Positions 37,863 to 43,887 of a stretch of DNA of 64,000 bases are shown one piece after another. Every line of letters starts with the position of its first letter. Position 1 is the first letter of the stretch. The position numbers and the translations under genes are program-made. A model generated the notes under the pieces. The model saw nothing but the letters and a program-made list of their open reading frames with translations, did not search any database and had not been told where the DNA came from. The DNA is from an uncultured beta proteobacterium (GTDB lineage Bacteria; Pseudomonadota; Gammaproteobacteria; Burkholderiales; JACQAP01), in contig CAWJWT010000002.1 in assembly GCA_963846655.1 (NCBI GenBank), forward strand, positions 519,376-583,375, written 5' to 3'.

Positions 37863-39041
37863 TTACTTTACACGATATTTCTTGAGCACTTTGGCATCCA
37901 GGTCCATGCCCAGGCCAGGTCGATCGGACAACGTGATATTGCCTTTCCTGTCCACGAGCAAGGGATCCGTTACCAGTTCATCCATGAGGGCATGAGCCGG
38001 AAATACGGTTTCGGCCATGGAGCCGTTGCGCACCGCGCCCAGCAGGTGCACCGCTGCCGCCACGGCCACGGCGGAGCCGTGGATGTGCGGTGCGATGGGC
38101 AGATTTGCGGCCTGTGCCATGTGCGCGATCTTCAATGTTTCTGTAATGCCGCCAGCCCAGGCCACATCGGGCTGCACGAAATGCACCGCGCGCGCAGCAA
38201 TATAGTCATTGAAATCGACGATGCCATAGCTGCAGGTTTCGTACCCCGCTACGGCAATGCCAACTTTCGCGGCCACTTCGGCGCTACCGCGCAAGTCGTC
38301 CGGTGAAACGGGCTCCTCATACCAATAAATGTCATGGCGTTCCATCGCGCGGCCCATGCGCACCGCGGTAGGCACATCCCACGCGCCATTCGCATCCACC
38401 ATGAGTTTGACGGCGGGACCCACTGCCGCTCGCACTGCGGCAACGCGTTTCAAGTCCTGTTCCAGCGTAACTTCGCATATGCCGGCATTGTCCATCACGC
38501 GCAGCGGTGAAAGCTCGATCCCGGCATTGCGGCCGACTTTCATTTTGACCGCGCGAAATCCATGTTTGACATAAGCTTCCATCTCCCGCGACAGTTCCTT
38601 GATACCCTTGCCTCGTGAATAGAATCCGCCCGTTGCATAGGCAGGCACGCGCTGGCGGTAACCGCCGAGCAATCGCCACAACGGCATGCCCGCCATCTTG
38701 CCGCGCAAATCCCAAAGCGCTATGTCGATGCCGCTGATAGCCGCGATGACGATGCCGCCCCGCGCATGTTTGTAGGCGCGCCGGTGCATCATCTCCCAGA
38801 GGTACTCGATGTTGCGCGGGTCCTGACCGATCAGGTAGTTGCGCAATTCATTTTCGATGACTTGTGAAGTCGATGCCATCGGCCCGCCGAAATGCGCGGC
38901 TTCGCCCAATCCGACAAGGCCCTGATCTGTTTCGACTTCGACGAGCAGCGCCGGCTTTGTCGCCATGGTGTAGTTGGCGTCGTAGACGGGTTGCGGGAGC
39001 CTCACTTCGACAGCGAGCGTGCGAACGTCTGTAATGCGCAT
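37863..39041 (-). CDS. Mandelate racemase/muconate-lactonizing enzyme family (enolase superfamily)
   Basis: ISGIDIALWDLRGK, KMKVG, MVDAN, YEEP, GYE, QPD...GG. Confidence 0.92.
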   Translation of the reverse strand: MRITDVRTLAVEVRLPQPVYDANYTMATKPALLVEVETDQGLVGLGEAAHFGGPMASTSQVIENELRNYLIGQDPRNIEYLWEMMHRRAYKHARGGIVIAAISGIDIALWDLRGKMAGMPLWRLLGGYRQRVPAYATGGFYSRGKGIKELSREMEAYVKHGFRAVKMKVGRNAGIELSPLRVMDNAGICEVTLEQDLKRVAAVRAAVGPAVKLMVDANGAWDVPTAVRMGRAMERHDIYWYEEPVSPDDLRGSAEVAAKVGIAVAGYETCSYGIVDFNDYIAARAVHFVQPDVAWAGGITETLKIAHMAQAANLPIAPHIHGSAVAVAAAVHLLGAVRNGSMAETVFPAHALMDELVTDPLLVDRKGNITLSDRPGLGMDLDAKVLKKYRVK

Positions 39042-39164
39042 GGCTTAAACCTTTTTTGAATGCTTGTGTGGAATATTTTATCGCGGCAATCGCGCTGCTG
39101 AAAAAATAAGCAGCCCTAACGGGAACATCAGTTGTAATACTGAGTCGCGCAGATTGCCAGAGCG

Positions 39165-39199
39165 CAATCCACAAGGTTATCCACAGAATTTGTGGATAT
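39165..39199. promoter_or_regulatory. DnaA-box triplet in DARS-like arrangement
   Basis: CAATCCACA-agg-TTATCCACA-gaatt-TGTGGATAT: two tandem boxes plus one inverted box. Confidence 0.75.
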
Positions 39200-39554
39200 T
39201 AATTTTTCCGAAAGTTGTTTGCGATTCACCGTCCAACCACGCATTCTTGTCGGGGTTGAGCGACAGTATGCACCGGGTGCAGTGTTGCACCGATCTGACC
39301 GCGCGCACACGAGCGCCTTTAGATATGATGCGCGACGTTAGCGCTGCGCCATTAGCGACGATTCAGAGCCGCTGGCGGCAATGGGTGCGCTTATTTGCGC
39401 CGCATAATGCAACACGCAGGAACGCTCGGGCGTTATCACCAGGGTAGTCGTTTGTCCCGCAAGTGGATGCTAACTCGTGCGGGGGTGTGGACTGCGTTGC
39501 GGTGAGCGGGCAACCCGGACATGCCGCTTCATCATTTGCCAGGGAGATTTTCCG

Positions 39555-40397
39555 TTGCCCCGATTTGCTGCCAATCTGCATTATCTGTTCAGTGAGTGGC
39601 CCTTTCTGGACCGCTTCGAGGCGGCTGCAGCCGCCGGCTTCGAGGCCGTGGAGTTTCAGGTGCCCTACGACTATCCGGCTGCCGAATTGACGGCTCGGCT
39701 GCGGTCAAATGGTCTGCAGATGGTGCTGTTCGATGCGCCAATGGGTGACTGGAATCGCGGCGACCGCGGCCTTGCCGCCGTGCCAGGCAGGGAAAAAGAG
39801 TTTCGCGACAGCCTTGCGCAGGTTATCGAGTACGGTTCTGCGCTGGCGTGCGACACCGTGCATCTGATGGCCGGCGTGGTCGGTCCGGGCCAGGATTACG
39901 GCACGGCGGAGCGCACCTATCTCGCGAATCTGGCGCATGCCGCCGTTGTGCTGGGCGAGCATGGCATGACAGGTGTCATAGAACCGATCAATAAGAAAAT
40001 GGGCATCGTGCAGAATGGCCCCAGCTACACGACGCAGGGCATGCACGGTTATTTCTTGAATCACACGGACCATGCGCGCCGTGTGCTCGACCAGATTGGC
40101 AGCCCGTATCTGCGCCTGCATCTGGATTGCTATCACATGCAGATGCTCGAAGGGCATCTTGCCGAAACCATTCGCGAACATATCAAATTGCTGCGGCATG
40201 TCCAGATCGCCGGCGTACCCGGCCGGCACGAGCCGGACGTCGGAGAAATCAATTATCCCTATCTTTTCGATCTGCTCGATGAATTGGGTTATCAGGGCTG
40301 GGTTGGCTGCGAATACCGGCCACAGCGCGATACCCTGGCCGGCCTGCGCTGGGCCGCTCCCTTCGGCATTAACGCGGGAACCGCCCGCCGGTCGTAA
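39555..40397 (+). CDS. Hydroxypyruvate isomerase family (Hyi/OtnI-like) TIM barrel
   Basis: PRFAANL, DRFEAAAAAGF.AVE, EPIN, DCYHMQ..EG, HVQIAGVPGRHEP, GWVGCEY; TTG start after AGGGAG. Confidence 0.92.
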   Translation: MPRFAANLHYLFSEWPFLDRFEAAAAAGFEAVEFQVPYDYPAAELTARLRSNGLQMVLFDAPMGDWNRGDRGLAAVPGREKEFRDSLAQVIEYGSALACDTVHLMAGVVGPGQDYGTAERTYLANLAHAAVVLGEHGMTGVIEPINKKMGIVQNGPSYTTQGMHGYFLNHTDHARRVLDQIGSPYLRLHLDCYHMQMLEGHLAETIREHIKLLRHVQIAGVPGRHEPDVGEINYPYLFDLLDELGYQGWVGCEYRPQRDTLAGLRWAAPFGINAGTARRS

Positions 40398-40821: not shown

Positions 40822-41773
40822 ATGGATCGTTTGTATCAAATGCGCCTGTACGTCCGGGTGGTGGAGACCGGCAGTTTTTCTGCGGTCGCTCGCGAATTCG
40901 GCACCATCCAGCCCACGATCAGCAAGCAACTAACTGCTTTAGAAGAACATTTAGGTGTTCGTCTGCTCCAGCGCACGACCCGGCAACTGAGCACGACCGA
41001 GGCCGGACGAAAATACTACGATCGCTGCCGGCACATTCTGGACGAAATAACGGATCTCGAGGGCAGTCTGACGGTCCTGCAGAACAGCCCGACCGGGCTG
41101 TTACGCGTGAATGCACCCGTGGCATTCGGCCAGCTTTACATGCTGCCGCTGGTCTTCCGCTTTCGCCGGCTTTATCCCGGCCTCGCAATCGACCTGACCC
41201 TGAACGACCGCTATGTCGATCTTGTCCAGGAGGGCATCGACGTCGCTATCCGCTTTGGTGAATTGTCCGATTCCCAAGTCGTCGCCCGAAGCGTCGGACG
41301 CGTAACGCGGGTGTGTGTCGCGAGTCCGGCTTATCTGCGAGCCCGCGGCGTGCCCAGAATCGCCGAACGATCTGCTGTCCCATAACTGCATTACTTATAA
41401 CTACCTGTTCACCAACGAATGGCAGTTTGGCGGCCCGCAGGGACCGACCAGCCTGCGAGTAAGCGGTGACTTTCGCGCCAATAGCGCGCTGACGATTCGC
41501 ACCGCGGCGCTGGAGGGCATCGGCATCGCCAATATGCCCGGCGTGTTCGTGCAGCAAGATCTTGGTACGGGCAGCCTGGTGCAGGTTCTGGCCGATTTTG
41601 CCCCGGCGCCCGTCGAAATCCACGTGCTTTATCCTTCCGCAAGATTTCTCGCCAGCAAAGTCAGGCTGTTGCTCGATTTTCTGCGCGATGAATTCCTGCA
41701 GATCCCGGCGTTGCAAGCGACGCTCGCGACGCCCAAACGGGTTCCGCGCATCCGTGCGAAAGTGGCCGGCTGA
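40822..41773 (+). CDS. LysR-family regulator (CrgA/DmlR-like; apparent frameshift near 41355)
   Basis: MDRL..M..YVRVVETGSFSAVARE, LEEHLGVRLLQRTTR, DLVQEGIDVAIR, ASPAYL, KVR...DFL. Confidence 0.92.
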
Positions 41774-41897: not shown

Positions 41898-43887
41898 ATG
41901 GCCAAAAAACCCAACGCTTATACCGCCGAGGATATCGAGATCCTCGAGGACCTCTCCCCGATCCTGCACCGCCCCGGAATGTACACCGATCCGGCGAATC
42001 CGAATCACGCGCTGGTCGAGATCATCGACAATGCGGCCGACGAAGGCCTGGCGGGATTTGCCAAGACGGTCGAAGTGGTGCTCTACGAGGACGGCTCGGC
42101 GGAAGTCAGCGACGATGGACGCGGCATTCCGGTGGATATCCATCCCAAGAAAAAAGTGCCGGCCGTGCAGGTCATCTTCACCACGTTGCATTCCGGCGGC
42201 AAGTTTCGTAAAACCGACAAGGATGCGGCGTACCGCATCGCCGGCGGCCTGCATGGCGTGGGCGTTTGCGTGCCCAATGCGTTGTCATCGCGTCTCGAAG
42301 TGGAAGTCAAGCGCGATGGCCGAAAAAAACCGCATCGTGTTTGCCGACAACGGCAAAGTGAAAGAGCCGCTCAAAAAAATCGGCACAGTCGGGCCGCGCG
42401 ATACCGGCACGCGCGTGCGTTTTTGGCCGGATCCGAAGTATTTCGATTCGCCGAAAATCAGTGCCACGGACATCGCCGCGTTATTGCGCGCCAAGGCCAT
42501 GCTGCTGCCCGGCGTGAAGTTTTCGCTGGCGATCGAAAAGAACGGGAAGTTCGAAACCCAGACCTGGCATTTTCCCGAGGGCATCAAGGGATACTTTGCA
42601 TCGGCGATGGCGGGCCAGGAGCCGGTTGCGGACACTTTTCTGGGCGAACGCTACATCGCCGCCCAATCCGAGAACGACAACTTCGCTGAAGGCGAGGGCG
42701 CGATGTGGGCGATTGCGTGGACGCCGGAGGGCGAACTGGTCACGGAGTCGTACGTCAACATGATTCCCACGCGCGTGGGCGGCACGCACGTCGCAGGGTT
42801 GCGCGAAGGCGTCTACAACGCGATCAAGAACTTCATCGATCTGCATGCCATGGGCCAGCGCGGGCTCAAGGTTGTGCCCGAGGACGTGTGGTCGCGCACG
42901 TCCTATGTGCTTGCCGTCAAGATGCTCGATCCGCAGTTCAAGGGCCAGGTGAAAAACGAGCTCATTTCGCGCGACGCGGTCAAGCTCACTGCACAGATGG
43001 TGCGCGATCCCTTCGAGTTGTGGTTGAACCAGCACGTCGATGAGGGCAAGCGCATCGCCGAGCTGGTCATCAGCCAGGCCAACGCGCGCACGCGCGCCGC
43101 GCAGAAAGTAGAACGGCGCAAGCAGTCCGGCGTGGCGGTGTTGCCCGGCAAACTGACCGACTGTGCGTCCGAAGACCCCGAGCGCAACGAGTTGTTCATC
43201 GTCGAGGGCGATTCGGCCGGCGGGTCGGCGAAGCAGGCGCGCGACAAGGAATTCCAGGCCGTGCTGCCGCTCAAGGGCAAACCCAAGAATACCTGGCAGG
43301 ACAGCCCCGATACGCTGTATGCCAACAAGGAAATAGAAGCCATTGCGTTGGCGATCGGCGTGGACCACCACAAAGCCGGCGACAATGTCGACCTGGGCGG
43401 TCTGCGATACCGCAAGATCGTCGTGCTGGCCGACGCGGACGTCGACGGCGCGCACATCCAGGTGCTGTTGCTGACGCTTTTCTTCAGGCATTTTCCGAAG
43501 CTCATCGAGCGCGGCAACGTGTATGTGGCGCAGCCGCCGCTGTTTCGCATCGACGTGCCATCGCAGGGCAAGGGCAAGCCGGCGCGAAAACTCTATGCGC
43601 TCGACAAGCAGGAGCTCGAAGGCATCGAAGAGAAACTCGTGGATGAGGGCTTCAAGCCGGATTCATGGGCTGTCAGCCGCTTCAAAGGCCTGGGCGAAAT
43701 GAATCCCGAGCAGCTCTGGGAGACAACGCTCAATCCAGACACCCGTCGCATGCTGCCCGTCCAGTTGGACGAGGGAGACAACATCTCGATCGATATCTTC
43801 AACATGATGATGTCGCGCGAGAACGCATCGCAGCGCCGCGAGTGGATGGAGACCTACGGCAATCTCGTCGAAGCCGACATTTCTTGA
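41898..43887 (+). CDS. parE: DNA topoisomerase IV subunit B (apparent frameshift at an A7 run near 42325)
   Basis: EIIDNAADE, DDGRGIPVD, LHSGGKF, LPGKLTDC, VEGDSAGGSAKQ, DADVDGAHI, RFKGLGEMNP.QL.ETT; lies upstream of parC. Confidence 0.95.

Follow-up and report, generated by a model that had tools for sequence, protein, structure and literature searches.

A chromosomal DnaA-reactivating sequence (DARS) is one of the few known routes by which a bacterium re-arms its replication initiator, and the two such loci of Escherichia coli, DARS1 and DARS2, are the closest described counterparts of the element examined here, a triplet of DnaA boxes in an intergenic gap of an uncultured betaproteobacterium. 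As set out in passages of Sugiyama et al. 2019 (PMC6868365), a consensus middle box nucleates the DARS complex, a pair of boxes separated by 5 bp binds DnaA head-to-head and a pair separated by 3 bp binds it head-to-tail, both spacings are required and conserved, and it is the head-to-head pair that loses adenosine diphosphate (ADP). The betaproteobacterial triplet, hereafter site A, occupies positions 39165-39199 of the window, the whole stretch of 64,000 nucleotides that was analyzed, which comes from a genome (GenBank assembly GCA_963846655.1, hereafter G000) of 4.39 Mb in 13 contigs, with 62% guanine-plus-cytosine (GC) and 84.7% completeness. A re-reading of the window returned the letters given in the original prediction, CAATCCACA-agg-TTATCCACA-gaatt-TGTGGATAT, a 9-3-9-5-9 layout that combines a 5-bp head-to-head pair with a 3-bp head-to-tail box, as a DARS core requires (Table 1). 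We think it probable, though by some distance not certain, that site A is a DARS-type DnaA-reactivating site.

The E. coli loci were taken from the MG1655 record, in which DARS1, between bioD and uvrB, has on its relevant strand the core TAATACACA-tgg-TTATCCACA-ggaat-AGTGGATAA, letter for letter as given in the original prediction, and DARS2 (rppH-mutH gap) reads TTCTTCACA-act-CTATCCACA-gaaaa-GGTGAATAA. When site A was aligned to these cores, the box orientations and the 3- and 5-bp spacers were the same, as had been claimed for DARS1, and 28/35 bases were identical to DARS1 and 23/35 to DARS2. Site A resembles DARS1 in its perfect-consensus middle box, in having little conserved flank, in lying upstream of a gene and in being away from oriC. 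It differs from DARS1 in its neighbors, which are MR/MLE and Hyi catabolic genes rather than uvrB, and in a flank that carries a conserved 25-bp inverted repeat overlapping a promoter-like site. DARS2, which is activated by IHF and Fis, has the same core geometry, and G000 encodes IHF alpha together with a short Fis-like protein; however, we found no recognizable IHF consensus at site A, and the Fis-like reading of its repeat was made by eye only. A more generic likeness is to the double DnaA box: according to passages of Stringer, Fitzgerald and Wade 2024 (PMC11317965), the general DnaA-binding unit of E. coli consists of a pair of direct boxes with 2-3 bp between them, a definition that the left and middle boxes of site A, 3 bp apart, also fit. 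The purine-rich spacer and the G that follows it likewise resemble the E. coli polA, purH, datA and oriC examples given in those passages (PMC11317965), but in site A a further, inverted box, also conserved, follows 5 bp downstream.

Chance is excluded as the source of the triplet. The three-box pattern CACANNNYTATCCACANNNNNNGTGRAYA, allowed up to 2 mismatches, matched the window once and matched 0/100 shuffles. Perfect TTATCCACA boxes number only nine in the whole of G000, and box-N5-inverted-box pairs only two, one at site A and the other at C2:837610. Throughout the E. coli K-12 chromosome, the pattern matched DARS1 and DARS2 only, with no match at oriC, datA, polA, purH or nrdA; it had been built to include both DARS, and in E. 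coli it is therefore only the absence of further matches that is informative. The datA locus is, like site A, an off-origin cluster of DnaA boxes, and it acts on the DnaA nucleotide cycle, as site A would, but it lacks the three-box pattern, has more boxes in another arrangement together with an IHF site, and promotes hydrolysis of adenosine triphosphate (ATP).

The gap that holds site A was compared by BLAST, at its 513-bp length, with the genomes of 40 relatives, 24 from the same genus and 16 from other families. Matches were found in 23/40 (19/24 in the genus and 4/16 in other families); every one of them covers the core, and most stop exactly at its right edge. We then aligned 20 loci, the window's own and 19 retrieved, and the 9-3-9-5-9 layout was present in 20/20, with boxes and spacing kept. 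The middle box TTATCCACA is invariant (20/20), and the inverted box reads TGTGGATAT in 19/20 loci and TGTGGATAC in one. The left box reads CCATCCACA in 9/20, CAATCCACA in 8/20 and other variants in 3/20, its variation being confined to the first 2-4 bases. Between left and middle boxes, the spacer is of invariant length and reads AGG in 19/20 loci and AGC in 1/20, and the 5-bp spacer occurs at fixed length in six variants (GAATT 8, GATTT 4, GAAAT 4, GAATC 2, GATTC 1 and GACAT 1). Fixed length combined with free sequence in the 5-bp spacer is the pattern that would be expected if two bound proteins had to be kept a set distance apart. The 35-bp core has a mean pairwise identity of 0.93, compared with 0.45 in the other columns of the gap and 0.53-0.65 in the adjacent coding start, and the core is the best-conserved part of the gap. 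The start-codon context of the MR/MLE gene aligns to the left of the triplet in 17-18/20 loci, and the gene was verified with Pfam in L005, L020 and L207.

G000 contains two triplet sites, as E. coli contains DARS1 and DARS2. The second, site B, reads GTGTGCACA-cag-TTATCCACA-aagat-TGTGGACAA in the orientation of site A; it is conserved in 23/24 same-genus genomes, and all three boxes and both spacer lengths were kept in 20/20 loci examined. Its context recurs among the retrieved site A loci, where L021, from another family, is placed between xseA and exbB. Site B sits in a module (G000:C2:837480-837900; L024:1440-1860) of which ~330 bp are conserved, with a GC-rich hairpin among its features, an IHF-like motif ~115 bp from the core that is kept in the genus and a fourth DnaA box ~180 bp away. 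Because of this conserved length, the IHF-like motif and the fourth box, site B resembles DARS2, the larger of the two E. coli elements, and site A resembles DARS1, the smaller. A third locus in the same genome, the hemE-priA gap (C5:428248-428268; L221:1600-1620), reads TGATCAACA-gat-TTATCCACA followed by non-box sequence. There the direct pair is conserved in 23/23 genus loci, and the 9-mer located 5 bp downstream is variable and not box-like. Since the priA double box has gone without an inverted box in all 23 loci, the inverted third box is specifically maintained in the genus at sites A and B. The direct pair alone would signal DnaA binding, and the inverted third box, which in E. coli sets DARS cores apart from ordinary double boxes, is the putative DARS-specific part. 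In several other families, the hemE-priA gap holds a full triplet.

The triplet is widespread beyond the genus and is independent of gene context across the order. In genomes drawn evenly from the window's order, the pattern was present in 161/401 genomes and 80/176 genera, and a reversed-pattern control gave 0 in every row; the window's genus had it in 11/11 genomes, mostly in two copies. The flanks of 40 order-wide loci were surveyed with Pfam. Nine of the 40 adjoin xseA and three more adjoin exbB or exbD only; another nine (ten triplets) adjoin priA, five of them with hemE opposite; one adjoins MR/MLE; and the remainder are varied, including uvrC/mutL, a TatD-family gene, an IF-2B-family gene, ABC-F, metG and others. 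Within a family, the combination seems to be either xseA and priA triplets or xseA and MR/MLE triplets. Public genomes yielded at least 121 loci in named Beta-, Gamma- and a few Alphaproteobacteria. Among the matches listed, the Betaproteobacteria include Bordetella, Azoarcus, Comamonas, Nitrosomonas, Sulfuritalea, Duganella, Snodgrassella and others, and the Gammaproteobacteria include Pseudomonas, Stenotrophomonas, Pseudoxanthomonas, Rhodanobacter, Legionella, Citrobacter and Kosakonia. When the flanks of sites A and B were compared with these public loci (at least 121), only the core matched.

This distribution bears on whether some local transcription factor unrelated to DnaA could use site A as its operator in controlling the MR/MLE or Hyi genes, with the middle and inverted boxes read as a palindrome, TATCCACA-N5-TGTGGATA, accompanied by a half-site. 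Perfect 8-bp palindrome arms are typical of dimeric regulators, the linkage to the MR/MLE gene is conserved and a LysR-type gene lies nearby. We nevertheless consider a local operator very unlikely, as the arms are the exact DnaA-box consensus, the three-box layout is found again at the unrelated site B of G000, and its spread through many unrelated gene contexts in 80 genera, plus named Gamma- and Alphaproteobacteria, is unexplained by a local regulator.

Triplets tend to adjoin genes of DNA repair or replication (xseA, priA, a TatD-family gene and uvrC/mutL in this order, uvrB and mutH in E. coli); the triplet between uvrC and mutL is that of L208 (G181:C1:2170444). Some genomes contain paired triplets, ~400-470 bp apart in one gap or ~27 kb apart, which look like local duplications: L176 (G092:C1:5094450, 5094915), L102, G294:C1:1158344, 1158750, G386:C24:15609, 16004 and G105:C1:1686388, 1713537.

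The original prediction had stated that the window contains no dnaA and that the triplet is away from any origin, and both statements held. The single dnaA match in G000 is on contig C5, at about 276 kb with rpmH upstream, and the cumulative GC skew of this contig dips to a V-shaped minimum at 270-280 kb. On contig C2 (1.04 Mb), GC skew is positive throughout, the two flanks of site A within the window included, with no switch at either triplet, which places oriC elsewhere than at site A. From this uniformly positive skew, C2 would lie wholly inside one replichore, and since C5 reaches 276 and 294 kb either side of dnaA, we infer that site A is at least ~0.83 Mb from oriC, given correct assembly. 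A search of the whole assembly, the dnaA neighborhood included, found no dense DnaA-box cluster, and for this reason oriC is located by the skew minimum to the neighborhood of dnaA only. Upstream of dnaA, the rpmH-dnaA gap (C5:275700-275890; L001) contains a single perfect DnaA box.

A replication origin, a secondary origin or an origin remnant at site A would account for DnaA boxes beside a moderately AT-rich flank; no dense cluster was found next to dnaA, and sites A and B belong to the highest-scoring clusters of the assembly. We regard this as extremely unlikely. The skew rules out oriC at either site, being positive on both sides of site A and along its contig and having its V-shaped minimum at dnaA on C5; site A has three boxes only, and no 50-bp window of its gap falls below 32% GC. 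In addition, in closed genomes from other families of the order, the distance between dnaA and triplets of the same pattern ranges from 43 kb to 1.5 Mb. Among closed or nearly closed genomes, the distance is 1.14 Mb in G029 (a genome of 3.6 Mb), 0.79 and 1.55 Mb for the two triplets of G149, 0.09 and 0.86 Mb in G104, and 0.04 and 0.67 Mb in G353. With no oriC placed here by the skew and with the spacing conserved, the analysis supports the original prediction of a DnaA-reactivating or DnaA-titrating site, two functions that sequence does not separate.

G000 encodes the proteins with which a reactivating site would work. Hda is present (G000:C10:105146-105799; 236.9 bits, cut-off 194.8), which implies a system that makes ADP-DnaA and hence a substrate for reactivation. 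IHF alpha scored 145 bits, over its cut-off, and a short Fis-like open reading frame (ORF) scored 83.8 bits, below the family cut-off of 99. The DnaA protein of G000 is 58% identical to that of E. coli. Residues R399, P423, D433, H434, T435 and H439, which are the base-contacting residues of DnaA domain IV, are identical in the two proteins, and L290, F239, K243, R285 and R334 are identical as well.

Because of the strong consensus match and the published rule that makes direct boxes 2-3 bp apart the high-affinity unit, three DnaA molecules are predicted to bind site A in a fixed geometry. What would follow, ADP release and regeneration of ATP-DnaA, is proposed by analogy only. As at DARS1, ADP-DnaA would first occupy the perfect middle box; one further protomer would be recruited head-to-head to the inverted box across the 5-bp spacer, and another head-to-tail to the left box across the 3-bp spacer. 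Head-to-head contact between AAA+ domains would then loosen the nucleotide pocket and let ADP leave, after which apo-DnaA would dissociate and rebind ATP, and the pool of initiation-competent ATP-DnaA, depleted by Hda-dependent hydrolysis, would rise.

Several observations weigh against such a role. In passages of the DARS study, ADP release at the E. coli DARS is described as depending crucially on glutamine 208 (PMC6868365), and the DnaA of G000 has Ser at the position of Gln208 and Tyr at that of Leu214. Residue 208 in 11 genomes of the order, G000 included, is Ser in nine, Ala in one and Gln in one. Any head-to-head contact would therefore need a different chemistry. Across the same 11 genomes, no link was found between the identity of residue 208 and the presence of a triplet, and the genome with Ala has two triplets. 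We take the mismatch to concern the partner protein of a single species rather than the DNA element itself, and it lowers confidence in the transfer of the mechanism. Four further points concern the DNA. Double boxes are present at 15/16 E. coli DnaA chromatin immunoprecipitation regions, ordinary regulated promoters included, according to passages of PMC11317965. The gap gave no BLAST match in 5/24 same-genus genomes, those five being 74-92% complete. The distance between triplet and dnaA is not conserved: in two closed genomes of another family it is ~143 kb (G343, an MR/MLE-type site) and ~271 kb (G402, which shares the core sequence of G343), compared with the minimum of ~0.83 Mb here. Finally, site A is tied to one gene, the MR/MLE gene, whose start codon is 123 bp downstream of it in most relatives, and this keeps a promoter role in play.

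The sequence between site A and the MR/MLE gene has features of such a promoter. It contains another conserved island, an inverted repeat into which the -35 region of a candidate sigma-70-like promoter for the gene extends (Table 1), and the start site implied by this candidate would be some 95-130 bp downstream of the triplet. Judged by eye, the 15-mer at 39097-39111 agrees with the Fis consensus given in PMC4245941 at 5/6 of the positions that the consensus specifies, and as a DNA hairpin the repeat has a z-score of only -1.18. The repeat may serve as part of a promoter, as an operator or as a Fis-like site. Two other candidates were rejected: an intrinsic terminator, which a scan had raised from a palindrome with a T-rich plus-strand tail, because no gene on the plus strand terminates ahead of it and relatives do not conserve the T-tail, and a structured RNA, because there was no Rfam match at E up to 1 within 38900-39700.

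Site A might thus be a high-affinity DnaA site without nucleotide exchange, which would serve either DnaA-dependent promoter control, of the MR/MLE gene here and of DNA-metabolism genes at the sister sites, or DnaA titration. The generic nature of direct boxes 3 bp apart at regulated E. coli promoters, as presented in passages of PMC11317965, speaks for this, as do the link of the triplet to the MR/MLE gene in most relatives and its place upstream of a promoter-like site. The sister triplets also lie upstream of genes (xseA, priA and uvrC/mutL), DARS1 and DARS2 themselves lie upstream of uvrB and mutH, and the lack of conservation of Gln208 is in favor of binding without exchange. We judge it possible but rather unlikely. 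The inverted box at exactly 5 bp is near-invariant (19/20) although it is unneeded for double-box binding, the plain double box upstream of priA is kept in the same genus without an inverted box, and the three-box layout in E. coli is confined to the two DARS. Moreover, a sugar-acid catabolic gene would hardly be expected in a DnaA regulon, and the distance of the triplet from the putative start site is far for a repressor.

If the DARS-type reading is right, a wider proposal can be made, which we offer tentatively and think unlikely: DARS would be older and more mobile than E. coli suggests, with a reactivating site created by the addition of an inverted box 5 bp from a double box and gained or lost locus by locus, and a DnaA with Ser208 or Ala208 would release ADP by contacts other than the Gln208 bond. 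Most families of the order seem to carry their two triplets at xseA and hemE-priA, and this genus together with one sister family has only the double box at priA and a full triplet before a sugar-acid catabolic gene. With triplets at different loci, the distance from the origin differs between lineages, which would reset their dosage during the replication cycle.

Passages of PMC6868365 refer to predicted DARS candidates in 'various bacterial species', other papers give candidates in Vibrio cholerae (PMC6090056) and in gamma-proteobacteria related to E. coli (PMC4245941), and a sentence of one review extends DARS to 'beta- or gamma-proteobacterial species' (PMC5742627). New here are the co-occurrence of the triplet and its double-box control within a single genome, the repeated placement next to xseA and priA and the non-conservation of Gln208. 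Our literature search found, among the titles listed, experimental DARS work for E. coli only and none for betaproteobacteria, Burkholderia, Pseudomonas or Vibrio, and did not cover the candidate list of Fujimitsu et al. 2009, in which DARS candidates in other species are reportedly predicted. G000 offers two candidate sites, a built-in negative control in the priA double box and a DnaA without a residue thought to be essential, and it thereby raises the questions of whether the three-box geometry alone is enough for ADP release and whether the Gln208 contact is general. If the sites are active, a DnaA-ATP/ADP cycle with chromosomal reactivating sites would be common to a much larger share of the Proteobacteria than is documented.

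Table 1. Features of site A and its surroundings, in window coordinates unless a contig of G000 is named
Feature	Position	Strand	Description
Left DnaA box CAATCCACA	39165..39173	+	2 mismatches to TTATCCACA; head-to-tail with middle box; counterpart of E. coli DARS box III
3-bp spacer AGG	39174..39176	.	Between left and middle boxes
Middle DnaA box TTATCCACA	39177..39185	+	Perfect consensus; counterpart of DARS box II; presumed nucleation site
5-bp spacer GAATT	39186..39190	.	Between middle and inverted boxes
Inverted DnaA box TGTGGATAT	39191..39199	-	ATATCCACA on minus strand; 1 mismatch; head-to-head with middle box; counterpart of DARS box I
Site B, second triplet	C2:837610-837644		279 kb from site A; between exbB-exbD-lpxK (minus) and xseA (plus)
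Second conserved island, inverted repeat GCTGCTGAAAAAATAAGCAGC	39094..39118	.	Mean pairwise identity ~0.80, compared with 0.45 background
Sigma-70-like promoter candidate for MR/MLE gene	39075..39104	-	TTTTCA, 18 bp, TAAAAT; 9/12 matches, consensus scan only
MR/MLE enolase-superfamily gene, left neighbor	37863..39041	-	Pfam MR_MLE_N and MR_MLE_C
Hyi-like xylose-isomerase-type TIM-barrel gene, right neighbor	39555..40397	+	Pfam AP_endonuc_2; start uncertain, longest ORF from 39477

The gap around site A is gene-free and, as first described, about 500 bp long and partly AT-rich: it measures 513 bp if the right-hand gene starts at TTG 39555 or 435 bp if it starts at GTG 39477, and has 53% GC, compared with 62% in the window, its left 200 bp ranging from 32 to 50% GC. 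The weaker DnaA box that had been noted near 39067 is present (TATTCCACA, 39067..39075, minus strand, 2 mismatches); it is not conserved in relatives and is probably a chance occurrence outside the element. In relatives, the triplet and the Hyi-like gene are separated by a lysine-rich ORF of 133 amino acids that belongs to no Pfam family (L005:1657-2058, minus strand, with a counterpart in L020); tblastn found neither the ORF nor a remnant of it in the window's gap or in the whole of G000. To the right of the Hyi-like gene, two genes are split over reading frames. One encodes a LysR-type regulator (window 40822-41773), with the helix-turn-helix and first half in 40822-41385 and the second half in 41315-41773. 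The other encodes a GyrB/ParE-family topoisomerase subunit B, probably parE (window 41898-43887), with the ATPase domain in 41898-42689 and the rest in 42031-43887. The combination of 13 contigs with only 84.7% completeness suggests that both splits are assembly frameshift errors rather than real pseudogenes.

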